From positions 640,001 through 704,000 of the forward strand of contig JBGAHS010000003.1 of the NCBI GenBank assembly GCA_044226015.1: a stretch of 64,000 nt of DNA. The letters are read 5' to 3'. The translations under genes and the position numbers were made by a program. The first letter of the stretch is position 1; every line of letters begins with the position of its first letter. The notes under the pieces were generated by a model. The model was given only the letters and a program-made list of their open reading frames with translations, did not search any database and was not told the DNA's origin. This document shows, piece by piece, positions 57,193-64,000 of this stretch. This DNA comes from Candidatus Obscuribacteraceae bacterium (lineage in GTDB: Bacteria > Cyanobacteriota > Vampirovibrionia > Obscuribacterales > Obscuribacteraceae).

Positions 57193-58020
57193 ATGCTTGA
57201 AAAAAGCACATGCCCCCCGCTGCCATCAGCTCTCGTCCATGACAGCTGGGGTGCTTACCTGCAGCGCACTTCAGTCTCAGACGCAGGCGACCCCCAACAG
57301 AGGGAAGATCTGAAGAGCTGCTGGTTTCGCCTGAACCGAATTCTGCCGCCCAACGATCGACTGTTCAGGCAGCTTCATGCCGCTTGCGAAGCCACTCAAC
57401 TCATCGATGGGTTGCCACGCCACGACGCAGAAATCAGCGAAGAAGATATCGCGCGGATCGCTGCCATCCATTTCCTTCGGGAAACTCCGCATGCTGTGTT
57501 TTCAGTTGCGCAAGAGCTGAAACACATCAACGAATGTGCGGCACGCGCAGTCACCAAGATTACAGGTGTTTTGCGTGGTCAGAAGAAGGCGCTTCTGTCT
57601 GATCGCCTGACTCGGCTGTCCGACGAAATCGAAGAGCTCGAGGCGCTGTTCAAAGCAGAACAGGCGGAACAAGCCATTCTTCCGCGCCAGCCCTATCAGC
57701 TGCGACAGCTCATTTTGGCAGAGCTGGTGATTAGCATCGAAGCGATGCTGAGTGAGCTGACTCCGCTCCGGCAGGCTCTGCATGGCAGTAGCTATGCGCT
57801 TGGCGAGACGATTCGCTGCCACGAAGCAAGGTTGTTTTGGTGGCGGCGCAAAATCAAGAAGCTCCGCGACAATCCCAGTCAACGCCAGACCGCAACTCTT
57901 CTGGCAGCGAAGGAAGAACTTACAGTGATTTGCCGGGACTTCGCGGCTCTGAAAGATCGCTGTTTCCACGACTGCAAAGAATTCGGATACGCGTTCTTCG
58001 ACCGCGGCGGCCCAAGGTGA
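57193..58020 (+). CDS. Hypothetical helical protein
   Basis: Long ORF followed by a hairpin; start uncertain (57121 GTG or 57193 ATG). Confidence 0.65.
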   Translation: MLEKSTCPPLPSALVHDSWGAYLQRTSVSDAGDPQQREDLKSCWFRLNRILPPNDRLFRQLHAACEATQLIDGLPRHDAEISEEDIARIAAIHFLRETPHAVFSVAQELKHINECAARAVTKITGVLRGQKKALLSDRLTRLSDEIEELEALFKAEQAEQAILPRQPYQLRQLILAELVISIEAMLSELTPLRQALHGSSYALGETIRCHEARLFWWRRKIKKLRDNPSQRQTATLLAAKEELTVICRDFAALKDRCFHDCKEFGYAFFDRGGPR

Positions 58021-58681
58021 GCAGCAAGAAAGAATGTGGAGCGAGGCAACTCGTTCCGCATTCTTTCTGCCATCTCCTGCCCTTTTGGCATTTTAAATCT
58101 ACCTTTTGCAATTTCATGCCACTAAAGCACCAAATTCTGGTACTCAAATCAGCTACAAAAGCGAGAACTCAACACTTCAATCGAAGCCAGAGAATTTCAC
58201 AGCACTTTTTGACTTTTAAAATACAAAAAGCCAGGCAAATTTACGCCCTGTTTAAAGTCCACCTTACACAGTCACAAGCGGTATTTGCCAAATTCTTCCT
58301 CAAGCTTATCCCTCTCACTCACTTCGGCTATGGCTCCTGCCGTGCAGGCTGTCAGGGCGCAAATCGTGAGCACAGCCAATCGATTAAGCATTTTCAAAAT
58401 CCTCTAGTAGTAAGATTCCTTGTTTGCAAAATTTGCCTGAACACTCTAACAGCTGAATAGTTGCCCTAAAAATCATCGCGACTTTTTGCATTTTAAAAGT
58501 CAAAAAGTACAAAAGTAAGTTGGAAAAAGGCATTTAAAAGTCAAAAAGCGGCATGAAGCAAGAATGCTCCACACCGCTCTTAGATAGCAAATCACCCAGG
58601 AGGGTGCGACTGATGATTCAGTGCACCACTCCTGGATGACCGCTAGTCAGGCGAGCCAGTTCAGGCGCCGGCGAAGAAGGG

Positions 58682-59407
58682 TTACTTCTTCTCCGACTCC
58701 TTCTTCAGCTCGTCGAGCGCGTCCTGACCTTCCTTCTTCTTCTTCTCTTCCTCGAGGCGGTCCTTGGCGCTGTCCTTGTCCATGTCGCGCTTGGCGCGCT
58801 CCTTCTCCAGCTCTTCGTCGATCTGCTTGTCGGCGTCGGCGAAGCCGCCCATGCCGTCCTGGATCTCCTTCAGCTGGTCGCGGACCTCGTTCTCGATGCG
58901 CAGCGCCGCCGTCAGCTCGACCTTGCCTTCGTTGGTCTGGATCTGGTCGGCAGCCTTGGACAGCAGCTCCGCCGTCGAAGCCAGCGCCTTGCGCGATTCC
59001 TCGGCCGACGCGTTGAACTCGGCGACGGTCTTCTTGTAGTTCTCGACCTTCGCGGCGGCGGCCTTCCAGTCGCGGGCGAGCGACTGCTGGTCGGCCTCGC
59101 TCATGTTCATCTTGACGGCGTCGAGCGCGCGCTGCTTGGCGGCGTCGGAAGCTTCCTGCAGCTTGTCGAGCTGCTTCTTCGCTTCGACCGACTTGGCGAT
59201 GGACGACGCGACCGAGTCACGCTGCTTCTTCGAGAGCGCCACGAGCTGGGCGTACTGCTGCTTCTGCTTCTCCAGCGGCGTGGTCGAGCCCTTCACGAGC
59301 TTGTTCCACCAGATGCTGATCGCATCGCGGGTCGGCTTGTGGAAAACGGCAACGCCCACGGCGAGAGCAGCGGCGCCAGCGATGATGAGGTTCGTGTCGA
59401 TGACCAT
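58682..59407 (-). CDS. PspA/IM30-like coiled-coil protein with an N-terminal hydrophobic anchor, copy 1
   Basis: 241 aa; P-L-E..., VA..IA, RA..A, LAR, GF...., C-terminal DALDELK pattern typical of PspA; AAGGAG RBS. Confidence 0.8.
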   Translation of the reverse strand: MVIDTNLIIAGAAALAVGVAVFHKPTRDAISIWWNKLVKGSTTPLEKQKQQYAQLVALSKKQRDSVASSIAKSVEAKKQLDKLQEASDAAKQRALDAVKMNMSEADQQSLARDWKAAAAKVENYKKTVAEFNASAEESRKALASTAELLSKAADQIQTNEGKVELTAALRIENEVRDQLKEIQDGMGGFADADKQIDEELEKERAKRDMDKDSAKDRLEEEKKKKEGQDALDELKKESEKK

Positions 59408-59419
59408 ACGTATTCTCCT

Positions 59420-59600
59420 TCGTGCAGTGTTCTGCAAAAATTGATGCCCGAATTTGTTGAGCGCGTGAGCAAGGTCCGCGCTGTAAGCAGGAACGGCACA
59501 AGCACCCGGCGGAAGCCGAGCGACTCATGCCACTACAAATGGTGTCGTTCCATCTGCAGTAGAAACCTCTCCGTAAGGAGAAAAGGTTTCTGCCGCAGAC
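59420..59600 (-). promoter_or_regulatory. Conserved structured leader upstream of PspA-like copy 1
   Basis: Stem sequences shared with 60432..60656 while the loops differ. Confidence 0.5.
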
Positions 59601-59693
59601 TGACGCTCAGGGTGGCAGCCTGGCAATGCCAAACTGCCACCCCTTGCGTTTTAGTCAGAACTCAGCGAGTCGAGTCCAGCCGGCGAAGAAGGG

Positions 59694-60419
59694 TTACTTC
59701 TTCTCGCCTTCCTTCTTCAGCTCGTCGAGCGCGTCCTGGCCGTCCTTCTTCTTCTTCTCGTCTTCGAGGCGGTCCTTGGCGCTGTCCTTGTCCATGTCGC
59801 GCTTGGCGCGCTCCTTCTCCAGCTCTTCGTCGATCTGCTTCTCGGCATCGTTGAAGCCGCCCATGCCGTCCTGGATCTCCTTGAGCTGGTCGCGGACCTG
59901 GTTCTCGATGCGCAGGGCCTCGGTCAGTTCGACCTTGCCTTCGTTCGTCTGGATCTGGTCGGCGGCCTGCTGCAGCAGCTGGGCGGTGGCGACGAGAGCC
60001 TTGCGGGCTTCGTCGGCCGACGCGTTGAACTCGGCGACGGTCTTCTTGTAGTTCTCGACCTTCGCGGCCGCGGCCTTCCAGTCGCGGGCGAGCGACTGCT
60101 GGTCAGCCTCGCTCATGTTCAGGCGGACGGCGTCGAGCGCGCGCTGCTTGGCGGCGTCGGACTCCTCCTGCAGCTTGTCGAAGCGCTTCTTCGCCACGAC
60201 CGACTTGGCGATCGAGCTGGCGACGTTGTCGCGCTGCTTCTTCGAGAGGACCACCAGCTCCTGGTAGCGCTTCTTCTGCTTCTCGAGCGGCGTGGTGGCG
60301 CCGTTGATGAGCTTGTTGTACCAGATGCTGATCGCGTCGCGCGTCGGCTTGTGGAAGATGGCCACGCCAACGGCGAGAGCAGCGGCGCCAGCGATGATGA
60401 GGTTCGTGTCGATAACCAT
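59694..60419 (-). CDS. PspA/IM30-like protein, copy 2 (most divergent)
   Basis: 241 aa from MVIDTN after AAGGAG; colinear with copies 1 and 3. Confidence 0.8.
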   Translation of the reverse strand: MVIDTNLIIAGAAALAVGVAIFHKPTRDAISIWYNKLINGATTPLEKQKKRYQELVVLSKKQRDNVASSIAKSVVAKKRFDKLQEESDAAKQRALDAVRLNMSEADQQSLARDWKAAAAKVENYKKTVAEFNASADEARKALVATAQLLQQAADQIQTNEGKVELTEALRIENQVRDQLKEIQDGMGGFNDAEKQIDEELEKERAKRDMDKDSAKDRLEDEKKKKDGQDALDELKKEGEKK

Positions 60420-60431
60420 AGTCAAATTCTC

Positions 60432-60656
60432 CTTAGTGCAGCGTTGTAGCTGCGGTTTGGTGCTGTCCATTGTTTGCGAAAGCGCGTGGACAGCGAGGCG
60501 CGCTGTGAACAGAAACGACATTGCATCCGGTCTTGCATCCTTTGCCGAAGCAGCGGAAACCAGTCCAGAAGCACATGACACTACAGACAGTGGCGACCAT
60601 CTGCAGTAGGAGTTGCTAGCACCCGTTATGGATTGCTAACAACCACTGCCGCAGAC
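60432..60656 (-). promoter_or_regulatory. Conserved structured leader upstream of PspA-like copy 2
   Basis: Same stems as 59420..59600. Confidence 0.5.
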
Positions 60657-60706
60657 GAGACGGCAGCCCAGATAAATCTGAGCTACCGCCCGCCTTCAGA
60701 ACGACT

Positions 60707-61054
60707 TCAGTTCTTGACGAACAGGCGTCCGACCATCGCCGCGATGAACAGGCTCATGCTGGCACCGTAAGTGCCCTGCAGGATGAACATCGGAATGGTG
60801 GCGCCGGCGTACCAGAGACCGCCAAGAACAGCAGCAACGAGCAGCGCCGGAACCAGCCGCTTCAGAGCCTCGCTGCCGGACGGACCAGCGTAGAGGTAGA
60901 GCGAAAAGTAGGCGCTGACCAGCAGTCCAACAGCCGCACCAGCCGCACCGCTGACGTAGTCAACGGTCGGACCAAGGCTGAAGAGAAAGCCAGTGATGAC
61001 GCCCGACACCATCCACGTGGTGGCAATCGGGTTATTCTTGATCCACTGAATCAT
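60707..61054 (-). CDS. Small 4-TM membrane protein between PspA-like copies
   Basis: AAAGGA RBS; four hydrophobic segments. Confidence 0.8.
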   Translation of the reverse strand: MIQWIKNNPIATTWMVSGVITGFLFSLGPTVDYVSGAAGAAVGLLVSAYFSLYLYAGPSGSEALKRLVPALLVAAVLGGLWYAGATIPMFILQGTYGASMSLFIAAMVGRLFVKN

Positions 61055-61173
61055 GGATAAGCAGTCCTTTCTTTGCTTTGAGATTTGTTGTTCAACGAAA
61101 ACACCCGAGAGTGCGATGATTGCTCACCAACACTCCCGGGTGTGACGTCAGTTCAGGCGCCGGCGAAGAAGGG

Positions 61174-61899
61174 TTACTTCTTCTCCGACTCCTTCTTCAG
61201 CTCGTCGAGCGCGTCCTGACCTTCCTTCTTCTTCTTCTCTTCCTCGAGGCGGTCCTTGGCGCTGTCCTTGTCCATGTCGCGCTTGGCGCGCTCCTTCTCC
61301 AGCTCTTCGTCGATCTGCTTGTCGGCGTCGGCGAAGCCGCCCATGCCGTCCTGGATCTCCTTCAGCTGGTCGCGGACCTCGTTCTCGATGCGCAGCGCCG
61401 CCGTCAGCTCGACCTTGCCCTCGTTCGTCTGGATCTGGTCGGCAGCCTTGGACAGCAGCTCAGCCGTCGAAGCCAGCGCCTTGCGCGACTCCTCGGCCGA
61501 CGCGTTGAACTCGGCGACGGTCTTCTTGTAGTTCTCGACCTTCGCGGCCGCGGCCTTCCAGTCGCGGGCGAGCGACTGCTGGTCGGCCTCGCTCATGTTC
61601 ATCTTGACGGCATCGAGCGCGCGCTGCTTGGCGGCGTCGGACTCCTCCTGCAGCTTGTCGAGGTGCTTCTTCGCTCCGACCGACTTGGCGATGGACGACG
61701 CGACCGAGTCACGCTGCTTCTTCGAGAGCGCCACGAGCTGCGCGTACTGCTGCTTCTGCTTCTCGAGCGGCGTGGTCGAGCCCTTCACGAGCTTGTTCCA
61801 CCAGATGCTGATCGCATCGCGGGTCGGCTTGTGGAAGACGGCGACGCCCACGGCGAGGGCAGCAGCACCAGCGATGATGAGGTTGATGTCGATGGTCAT
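61174..61899 (-). CDS. PspA/IM30-like protein, copy 3
   Basis: 241 aa; nearly identical to copy 1. Confidence 0.8.
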   Translation of the reverse strand: MTIDINLIIAGAAALAVGVAVFHKPTRDAISIWWNKLVKGSTTPLEKQKQQYAQLVALSKKQRDSVASSIAKSVGAKKHLDKLQEESDAAKQRALDAVKMNMSEADQQSLARDWKAAAAKVENYKKTVAEFNASAEESRKALASTAELLSKAADQIQTNEGKVELTAALRIENEVRDQLKEIQDGMGGFADADKQIDEELEKERAKRDMDKDSAKDRLEEEKKKKEGQDALDELKKESEKK

Positions 61900-62082
61900 A
61901 GTGATTTCTCCAGTTTGTGCAGCGTTCTAAGCTGCGGATTGTGAATGGGTTGAGAAACTCTCGCGTCTTCTTCACAGAAGTCGCGAATGCAATTCATTAG
62001 AGGAAGGGAAATGCCGTGCGTGTTTCTCAGATGAGTGCGAACACTCACCCGATAGCACGCACGGCATGACTGCGACTTCTAC

Positions 62083-63999
62083 TTAGTAGTTGTCGCCACC
62101 CGACGGGGTACCGCCGACGTTGCCACCACCCGAAGGAGTGCCACCGCCCCAGTTGCCGCCGCCAGAGTTGTTGTTGTCGTCACGGCGACGACGGTCTTCT
62201 TCTTCGCGACGCCGGCGATCTTCCTCTTCGCGACGACGACGCTCTTCCGCTTCACGCCGACGATTCTCCTCGTCGATGCGGCGCTGTTCCTCCTGCCACT
62301 CGCGGATCTGCTCCTGAATGGCAGCAGCGAGCTGAGCGTCAGCCCAGCGTTCGGCGCTGTCTGCAGCCGAGTCAGCGCGACGGATGCTGTTGCGAGCACC
62401 TTCGTAGTCACGGCTGCGAATCTCGGCGCTAGCCTGACCGAGATAACGCTGCGCTTCGCTGAGGTCCAGCGTGATCGGAATGACGATCACACGGGAGCGG
62501 CCGCCCCACGTAGCGGTCTGCGTCCAGGAGCGAATCTTGAGCGCGGTGATGCGCGATTCGACCTGGGACAGCTCACTGCGCGCCGTGTTGGCGAGCGACT
62601 TGTCGGCTTCGGCCAGACGCTTCGCTTCGTCAGCCACCGTCTTCTTCGATTCCGCCTGGCGCGACAGAGCCTGCCAGTCAGACTTGGCCACACGGTAGCT
62701 CGCCTCCAGTTCCGCGAGGACCTGGTTGGCGTCGGTCAGCTTCTGACGCGCCGGAGTGCGCACGTCAGGGTGGTCGACGGACTGAGACGCCGAGGAGATG
62801 GCGCTCTTCACAGCCGCGATGCGCTCACCAGCAAGCTGGTAGTCGCGCTTCTCGCTGTCGATGCTGCCATCGACCTTCTTCAGGTCTGCGAACAGCTTGT
62901 CGGCAGCTTCGGCAGCAGCCGGCCAGTCGGTGATGTCCTTGGCGACATCGCTCTTCTGGTTGCGGAGCACCGGCAGCAGCGCAGCGTAGGCGCCGTCCGT
63001 CTGCTTGGAGGTGGTGAACGAATTGGCTTCCAGCTTCGACTTCAGCGAGGTGCTGAACTGGTCGCTATTGGCCACGGTCGACTTCGCGTGCGACCGCAGG
63101 TTACGCAGTTGCTTCAGCCGAGTGGAGATCTCGACCAGGGCGTTGCGGCTGCCCTGCACGTCCGAACCAGCGTTCTCCATGAGCTTGCGAGCCGCGACGT
63201 AGCGCTGCTCGAAGTACGCCGCACGCACCTTGGCCAGCTCAGCAGCAGTCGCCTCGCTCACCTTGGTCGCACGAACGAGCTTCTCCGGCTCACCCTGGAA
63301 GTTCTTCGCCAGGAAGTCCGCCTTGAGGGCATCGACATCCTTGCCGGACGCCGGAAGTTCAGCAGTCAGCTTGCCCAGGTTGTCCCGGACAGCCGGCACC
63401 GACTTCTCGACAGCAGCCTTGGCAGCGATAACGGTATCGACAGTCGCGACCGCCGCAGCCGAAGCCTTGGACGACGCCGCCTTCTCCGCTTCCGCCTTCA
63501 CCAGGTCACCAGCGAGCAACGCCTTGTGAGCGTCATCGAGGTGCTGCTGCGACTCGTCGAGCTGCGAGTCCGGATTGGCGCCCGCTTCGTTCAGCAGGAA
63601 CTTCTCCGCGACGCCCGCCGGAACTTCGCCCTGTTCCGGGTAGTTGTAGCCGGCCTTCTGAGCCCGCACTTCAGAGACACGCTTGCGCGCGTTCTTCAGC
63701 TCGGTCTCGGTGCCGCCCAACTGGTCCTTCAGCTTCAGGGCATGCTCGATGTCACCCTTCAGCGCTTCGGCTTCCTTCTCGACGGTCTCGGAGTCCGAGA
63801 ACGCCGCCAGCGGGTCGCTCTGGAGGATATCCAGGAACGCCTTCTGGTCCGCCTTGATCTTCTGATAGCGCGGCTCGTAGGGCGAGAAGTCGAGCCCCTT
63901 CTCCTTGATGCTGGCGCGCAGGTCGTCGACCGCCTTGGTGATGGCTTCGATTTCCTGACGGTTCGTCTCCGCTCCGCGGAAGCTCTTGCGGATGGAGCC
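62083..63999 (-). CDS. Large coiled-coil protein with an E/R-rich helix and Gly-rich tail (5' end outside the window)
   Basis: Frame stays open to the window end (over 638 aa); EEEDRRRR repeats; ends GGGNWGGGTPSGGGNVGGTPSGGDNY. Confidence 0.88.
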   Translation of the reverse strand, partial: GSIRKSFRGAETNRQEIEAITKAVDDLRASIKEKGLDFSPYEPRYQKIKADQKAFLDILQSDPLAAFSDSETVEKEAEALKGDIEHALKLKDQLGGTETELKNARKRVSEVRAQKAGYNYPEQGEVPAGVAEKFLLNEAGANPDSQLDESQQHLDDAHKALLAGDLVKAEAEKAASSKASAAAVATVDTVIAAKAAVEKSVPAVRDNLGKLTAELPASGKDVDALKADFLAKNFQGEPEKLVRATKVSEATAAELAKVRAAYFEQRYVAARKLMENAGSDVQGSRNALVEISTRLKQLRNLRSHAKSTVANSDQFSTSLKSKLEANSFTTSKQTDGAYAALLPVLRNQKSDVAKDITDWPAAAEAADKLFADLKKVDGSIDSEKRDYQLAGERIAAVKSAISSASQSVDHPDVRTPARQKLTDANQVLAELEASYRVAKSDWQALSRQAESKKTVADEAKRLAEADKSLANTARSELSQVESRITALKIRSWTQTATWGGRSRVIVIPITLDLSEAQRYLGQASAEIRSRDYEGARNSIRRADSAADSAERWADAQLAAAIQEQIREWQEEQRRIDEENRRREAEERRRREEEDRRRREEEDRRRRDDNNNSGGGNWGGGTPSGGGNVGGTPSGGDNY

Positions 64000-64000
64000 G

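Follow-up and report, generated by a model that had tools for sequence, protein, structure and literature searches.

A divergent PspA/Vipp1 family with a predicted membrane anchor, encoded in homogenised tandem copies beside a TPM-domain membrane protein in Obscuribacteraceae

Those members of the PspA, Vipp1 and ESCRT-III families that have been characterised are soluble, and their attachment to membranes is reversible. In the closest described bacterial arrangement, the pspA-ydjGHI (pspA-samGHI) locus of B. subtilis, PspA is encoded together with a protein composed of a signal peptide, a TPM domain and a transmembrane (TM) helix (PMC8581546, PMC13713150, PMC11237479; literature is cited throughout from excerpts of the sources named). 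Two-hybrid tests show YdjH binding to PspA, whose membrane foci depend on YdjH (PMC8581546), and SamH has been proposed to be a sensor (PMC13713150). Here we describe a similar pairing in a 64,000-nucleotide stretch of a Candidatus Obscuribacteraceae genome (the window; genome G000, contig C6, 640001-704000), in which three tandem genes for divergent PspA/Vipp1 relatives, each with a predicted N-terminal TM anchor, follow the gene for a large TPM-domain membrane protein.

Characterised PspA, Vipp1 and ESCRT-III proteins reach the membrane through helix 0 (PMC12358876). According to Ravi et al. (PMC11237479), PspA occurs with TPM partners, which may terminate in a segment of low complexity or in an extended coiled coil, and cyanobacterial pspA genes form dyads and triads of distinct types; more than 98% of PspA homologs consist of the bare domain, and Table S3 of that survey holds a SIG+TM+Snf7 architecture and no TM+PspA. 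Seven pspA-TPM neighbourhoods are reported in a preprint on huge phages (10.64898/2026.10.24.761521). The excerpts of Popp et al. (10.1101/2021.02.15.431232) and of a 2025 review (PMC7619361) contain no anchored PspA, those of the review being free of the word 'transmembrane'. Our literature search, whose coverage left out the web-app tables of Ravi et al., subscription journals and bioRxiv supplements, returned no description of a TM-anchored PspA family. The main features of the locus, in positions of the window and with the evidence for each, are as follows.

61174-61899, minus strand: anchored PspA-like copy A, 241 residues (open reading frame (ORF) list, profiles, model)
61831-61887, minus strand: predicted anchor helix of copy A (residues 5-23), predicted N-out/C-in, followed by a K-P kink and the equivalent of amphipathic helix 0 (residues ~24-41) (hydropathy, model, alignment)
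59694-60419, minus strand: anchored PspA-like copy B, 241 residues, 87% identical to A and C (ORF list)
58682-59407, minus strand: anchored PspA-like copy C, 241 residues, 98% identical to A (ORF list)
62083-64000, continuing to 65235 (G000:C6:702083-705235), minus strand: partner gene, 1050 residues (ORF, fold and signature analysis)

A sequence-only reading of this DNA had proposed that three colinear 241-residue proteins, each opening with a hydrophobic helix and an amphipathic segment, are related to PspA and Vipp1. The ORFs and motifs are indeed present, with AISIWWNKLV reading AISIWYNKLI in copy B, and profile homology over the full length identifies the proteins as divergent PspA/Vipp1 (bacterial ESCRT-III) relatives. 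A phmmer search of 1.84 billion representatives found 43 relatives, mostly of 240-260 residues. When a profile of 37 sequences was compared with the PDB, the best four matches were Vipp1 or PspA, with profile positions 24-237 running colinearly with residues 6-216 of the chain (214 positions, E 2.4e-6); the next unrelated match was tropomyosin (E 0.0025), and Snf7/CHMP was absent among the 60 PDB matches shown. Alignment of 51 family members with 23 canonical PspA/Vipp1 sequences by hhalign gave a probability of 95.5% (E 1.5e-8, 201 columns), starting at query position 22 and template position 3, as against 0.7% for the reversed-alignment control.

The AlphaFold monomer (mean predicted local distance difference test score, pLDDT, of 74) comprises helices 5-22, 24-41, 44-99 and 104-237, of which the hairpin exceeds a pLDDT of 90 and the C-terminal part, modelled as a single helix, is of low confidence. 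Foldseek ranks 1-10 are all Vipp1. Compared with the cyanobacterial Vipp1/IM30 and PspA structures (6ZVR, 7O3X, 7ABK; PF04012), which are the family's best sequence-profile and Foldseek matches and whose family-defining features are described by Liu et al. (PMC8281802), the order helix 0, hairpin, helices 3-5 and the length are the same. Identity, however, is ~15%, below Pfam detection, the Vipp1-type C-terminal extension is missing, the EDPE motif is replaced, and a TM helix precedes helix 0. The amphipathic character of helix 0 is retained, its mean hydrophobic moment being 0.52 versus 0.57 and 0.62 in the canonical PspAs of the genome. None of 53 family proteins carries PF04012, and those with names are 'hypothetical' or 'chromosome segregation ATPase'; an Atlas search returned a hypothetical cluster from Melainabacteria (0.95) and two clusters named PspA/IM30 (0.93), one with PF04012 on 36% of its members.

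It is the predicted TM helix that sets the family apart from canonical PspA and Vipp1, which are soluble, peripheral and without one. We reduced 100 sequences to 58 representatives at 70% identity and called a TM helix where a 19-residue window reached a hydropathy of at least 1.6. Such a helix is predicted in 57 of the 58 representatives (98 of the 100 sequences), and the other segments of these 57 never exceed 1.09. Because the canonical N-terminus aligns from residue 22-24, the hydrophobic helix is an addition to helix 0 and not its replacement; a proline marks the junction between the two in 74 of 98 cases. Lysine or arginine (K/R) is missing ahead of the helix in 54 of the 57 representatives, and at least two such residues lie directly behind it in 56. 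Read with the positive-inside rule, this charge pattern predicts an uncleaved N-out/C-in anchor and a cytoplasmic body, so that the integral helix of the sequence-only reading is upheld by its signature. An AxA motif follows the helix in 10 of the 57 and a lipobox is found in one; as an internal control, the partner protein has a K/R-containing n-region and an AxA-like site (looser pattern) in all 26 homologs. Two full-length copies, on contig C8 of G000 and in G382, lack the TM helix and begin at a plain amphipathic helix 0. In a quick tree with midpoint root both are nested within TM-bearing sequences, which implies two losses of the helix.

Upstream, a coiled-coil protein of more than 638 residues with an E/R helix and a Gly-rich tail had been noted, along with a possible TPM-like N-terminus outside the window. 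Both points are borne out by the full ORF and the adjacent DNA. The protein consists of a Sec signal peptide (1 to ~27), a TPM-fold domain (~28-190), an E/R/Q linker, a TM helix (241-259) and a helical rod of ~740 residues with the E/R helix and the Gly-rich tail, whose last residue is aromatic. The model of the 165-residue N-terminal domain has a pLDDT of 94, and VIA places TPM proteins at ranks 1-9 (PG_0361, BA41, Psb32 and AtTLP18.3 among them; Z 13.6-13.1), the next fold scoring 6.8; the best match has Z 13.6 and a root-mean-square deviation of 3.4 over 139 aligned residues. By sequence the domain is below the PF04536 cut-off, weak matches being confined to two of 17 homologs (E 0.011 at best), and no column is invariant across the 17 aligned TPM domains. 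All 26 partner homologs have one TM helix, followed in 25 by at least three K/R. Since basic residues follow this single helix, the rod is predicted to be cytoplasmic, on the side of the PspA body, and the TPM domain periplasmic.

The rod gives weak matches to EzrA in 5 of the 26 partners (best E 4e-8). A complex prediction for rod residues 263-1005 with PspA body residues 23-241 scored 0.00, a 'no answer' that weighs neither way. A candidate MIT-like domain near the partner's C-terminus was rejected, its E value of 0.024 rising to 0.64 with a local profile; Pfam MIT gave no match, and DUF4398 appeared instead in 7 of 21. Many short TM proteins that stand alone and have Gly/Ser/Cys-rich tails, some of them in tandem, carry this divergent TPM domain as well (L037:4552-6393, L040 and others).

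We searched 104 genomes of the window's family, Obscuribacteraceae, of which 42 match the PspA-like profile and 62 the TPM profile. For linkage counts we used 97 of 115 PspA rows, after dropping weak rows, short fragments and, where a copy was broken, its second half, and 73 of 116 TPM rows, with every long ORF retained. A TPM gene lies directly upstream at 41 of 62 loci; counted by genome, the linkage is seen in 36 of 41. Of the 54 long TPM ORFs (at least 900 residues), 40 adjoin a PspA-like copy; many unpaired loci are at contig ends. Identities of partner and PspA are correlated (Mantel r 0.42, a value attained in 0 of 2000 permutations), which is no proof of co-evolution because kin share history. 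Named homologs come from Obscuribacter, Obscuribacterales and Melainabacteria. A 301-genome sample of the phylum gave just two weak partial matches besides G000, and a GTDB-wide single-protein scan gave none, a scan so insensitive that it also missed known family members.

The pairing of pspA with a gene for signal peptide, TPM domain and TM helix is thus shared with pspA-ydjGHI. In contrast to that system, the PspA here has its own predicted TM anchor and comes in two or three homogenised copies, and the partner has a 740-residue rod predicted to be cytoplasmic. No SPFH or zinc-ribbon gene was recognised among the recurring neighbours of 33 loci or in this cluster, the neighbours not having been scanned with an SPFH profile. 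A stand-alone gene with a Peptidase_M17_N domain flanks 12 of the 33 module loci (for example L071:334-1017) and was not found at the window's locus. LemA genes, too, are linked to TPM genes. LemA (PF04011; 10.64898/2026.10.21.759321) offers a functional analogy as a single-TM helical membrane remodeller, but no homology was seen, MamQ/LemA bodies are described as periplasmic, and G000 has no PF04011 match. The SIG+TM+Snf7 proteins of Table S3 in PMC11237479 (Ca. Handelsmanbacteria, Archangium, Salinibacter), compared by description only, share an ESCRT-III-superfamily domain with a predicted TM helix. Those, however, are annotated as Snf7, with signal plus TM helix, beside a separate canonical PspA and with no TPM listed, whereas the PDB matches of this family are Vipp1/PspA. 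Our verdict is that the system probably works like PspA-YdjH and is homologous to PspA/Vipp1, yet is a distinct anchored and amplified variant.

Copies A and C share 98% of their residues (five differ) and 97% of their nucleotides, and B is 87% and 88% identical to each of them, 72 nucleotide sites setting it apart. Two separate studies (X1, X2) each have short-read contigs that contain the unique flanks at 57500-58686, 59372-59793, 60384-61178 and 61807-64000; one of these runs may have been the source of the window itself, and the full stretch is not spanned by any single contig. In X1 the contig depth is 24-27 inside the repeats versus 12.8 (~2x). Because four unique flanks recur in two studies and repeat depth is doubled in X1, the triplication is real and no assembly artefact. 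Two short contigs (213 and 290 nucleotides) of an RNA run, X17, lie over copies C and B, which is no proof of transcription.

Arrays of two or three copies are common in the family. The closest match lies in the same locus for 43 of 50 full-length copies that have a neighbour; in the tree, arrays mostly form their own clades, and no paralog class is common to different arrays. At least one pair reaches 85% nucleotide identity in 17 of 21 arrays. For nine of 17 pairs of at least 95% coding identity, A-C of this window among them, neither flank is more alike than shuffled sequence; these nine lie in eight arrays. Gene conversion would be expected to leave such a pattern, with identity confined to coding sequence and spacers unrelated, though a recent duplication whose spacers then turned over may also account for it. 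Copies homogenised in this way suggest dosage of one subunit and argue against fixed paralog classes. A second module of G000 (G000:C8:720095-724793, L027) holds a TPM-rod gene, one TM-less and one TM-bearing copy, 34% identical, and is the best natural test case for hetero-polymer formation; in L086 (G337) the TPM-rod gene sits between two anchored copies that are 96% identical. Frameshifted array copies, at differing positions, occur in L023, L024, L081 and L082 (G012, G365, G368) and may be long-read indels (G012 and G365 have very few contigs) or pseudogenes.

The GC content at third codon positions (GC3) of the three copies, 0.92-0.94, is not equalled by any other of the 4205 long ORFs (median 0.45), and GC3 of PspA exceeds that of the partner in 22 of 22 loci. 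High GC3 as a host expression signal was rejected, since the host's own ribosomal and GroEL genes lie at 0.43-0.50. Across G000:C6:400000-853000, the end of C8 and the start of C9, high-GC3 genes (0.7-0.9) are mixed gene by gene with host-like ones (~0.45). This several-hundred-kilobase mosaic probably consists of acquired genes, and the position of the array within it suggests acquisition; the extra GC3 excess could stem from conversion bias or donor codon bias, which are inseparable here. Beyond the window, G000:C6:708275-717737 is a divergent cluster with a VWA-domain gene (Pfam), not among the recurring neighbours of other loci. Judged by eye, its genes presumably also encode a second VWA protein, a MoxR-type AAA+ ATPase, a DUF58-like protein and two secreted PDZ proteases, and a similar set lies near 724924-731177.

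Two further features belong to the locus.

60707-61054, minus strand: 115-residue hydrophobic protein between A and B, a passenger (ORF, homolog positions)
58544-58581, minus strand: terminator-like hairpin after copy C, 17 pairs with a T-rich tail (consensus match only)

The 115-residue ORF is the protein with four TM helices that the sequence-only reading had placed among the copies. The ORF is there, with three clear hydropathy peaks and a weaker fourth, but its membership in the module falls away: of 103 other genomes five contain a match to it, the best three on other contigs or ~370 kb from arrays, and since its homologs sit away from arrays we regard it as a passenger outside the conserved module. 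An Atlas search with it reached 0.88 at best, with no family. The hairpin is likely the end of the gene cluster. Past it, inverted repeats of 27 nucleotides (96%) and, overlapping, 25 nucleotides flank an AT-rich gap (58196-58230 and 58482-58557). Rfam gave no match at E 0.1 over 11 kb, and a promoter scan was at chance level (4 found versus 2.8).

We consider it probable that these proteins are a divergent, anchored PspA/Vipp1 subfamily whose homogenised tandem copies, encoded behind a TPM membrane protein, serve at high dosage as a coat that repairs or shapes the inner membrane from its cytoplasmic face. The subunits would be inserted in the inner membrane, with helix 0 kept on the cytoplasmic leaflet, and an ESCRT-III coat may polymerise in place at sites marked by the partner, a mechanism that draws on the B. 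subtilis system and on the helix-0-driven tubulation by PspA (PMC12358876). By analogy with B. subtilis YdjH/PspA and with PspA/Vipp1 structures, the partner may sense the state of the envelope outside and position or nucleate the polymer inside, while the built-in anchor could stand in for separate recruiters such as YdjI/YdjG, LiaI or PspBC. Extra copies would then supply more of one subunit.

Several observations weigh against this explanation. The family profile matches canonical PspA/Vipp1, but single copies are below the PF04012 and NCBIfam cut-offs. Just one homolog among 37 gives a PF04012 match, and a weak one (E 0.0034), a canonical-PspA hidden Markov model gives the family a median of 0.25 bits (reversed, -6.55), and TTxxE stands in place of EDPE at the start of helix 1. 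In the monomer model helices 2-5 are fused into one and the hinges are not shown, Foldseek gives no match at E 0.001, and in VIA Vipp1 (Z 12.5) nearly ties with colicin and YscO hairpins (12.2). As VIA ties Vipp1 with unrelated hairpins, the fold match by itself does not discriminate; given these weak Foldseek and VIA results, the PspA assignment rests on sequence profiles, with which the fold is consistent. A PF04012 search of the same genome found pspA elsewhere, as two canonical genes and one that is partial, so that ordinary repair is provided for already. Fourteen of the 54 long TPM ORFs have no adjacent copy, some of these near contig ends. Co-inheritance is loose, as in 10 of 23 loci the nearest neighbour of the partner is also that of PspA, and between the window and G007 the partners are 54% identical and the PspA copies 22%, so that the window's array looks swapped relative to that of G007. 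Both points argue against a tight specific interface. At one canonical locus of G000 (G000:C8:235957-237005, L003), pspA is followed by a short, 171-residue PspA-like gene.

Divergence from PF04012 as strong as this, together with the single long helix of the monomer model and the EzrA matches of the partner, might point to a PspA descendant that no longer builds ESCRT-III lattices and serves, with the EzrA-like rod, as a membrane-tethered coiled-coil scaffold in cell shape, division or envelope tethering; the anchor may, moreover, stand in the way of closed rings and rods such as canonical PspA forms. We regard this as unlikely. The homology takes in helices 0 to 5, at a length close to the canonical one, and with them the C-terminal helix on which polymer contacts of Vipp1 depend (PMC8281802), and the TM-less copies with plain helix 0 arose twice and are still full length. 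The sequence-only reading had suggested hetero-polymers of distinct paralogs, which would make the copies specialised subunits as in eukaryotic ESCRT-III, the TM copy nucleating and the others extending. This was not supported in that form, in view of the near-identity of A and C, the homogenisation by array, and the lack of paralog classes common to arrays; TM-bearing and TM-less copies are paired in 2 of 21 arrays (G000 C8, 34% identical; G382, 70%), the window's array not being one. Even with the distinctness of copy B and two further arrays whose copies are just 57% and 72% identical, we find such specialisation improbable.

Were the hydrophobic helix a cleaved signal, or one that orients the protein outward, the protein would act in the periplasm beside the TPM domain. 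The AxA motifs fit this, but the basic residues lie on the wrong side of the helix, the partner shows the opposite, textbook signal pattern, and the TM-less copies are possible only in the cytoplasm; we give this next to no credence. It also seems very unlikely that the module derives from a phage or element and travels as mobile cargo, with a role in defence or superinfection-related membrane protection and not in housekeeping. The GC3 of the copies amid interspersed high-GC3 genes, the patchy presence among genomes, two mostly viral neighbour clusters in the Atlas and the phage pspA genes beside TPM genes (10.64898/2026.10.24.761521) would fit such an origin. Against it, there was no consistent PHROG match and no relative in phage collections, viral_contigs or BFVD, searches so insensitive that a canonical PspA query also came back empty, and the M17-peptidase-N-domain gene at the 12 loci suggests a long-held chromosomal position.

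An anchored, high-dosage PspA coat thus remains our preferred explanation. A bolder form of it, which we put forward as possible though doubtful, is an ESCRT-III polymer of integral subunits: a permanently embedded high-copy coat, switched on in place by the trans-envelope TPM-rod protein as nucleator, would build constitutive membrane structures (tubes, invaginations or vesicles) in the sister group of the cyanobacteria, which is non-photosynthetic, and would be a second way, next to Vipp1, in which PspA came to shape membrane architecture. Being invisible to Pfam, the family would be missed by surveys based on PF04012. The repeated homogenised arrays suggest a protein that is needed in bulk. 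With a predicted TM helix placed before helix 0 and apparently lost twice, the family offers matched anchored and unanchored versions for asking whether ESCRT-III remodelling needs reversible recruitment, and it may also bear on how such polymers are kept off.

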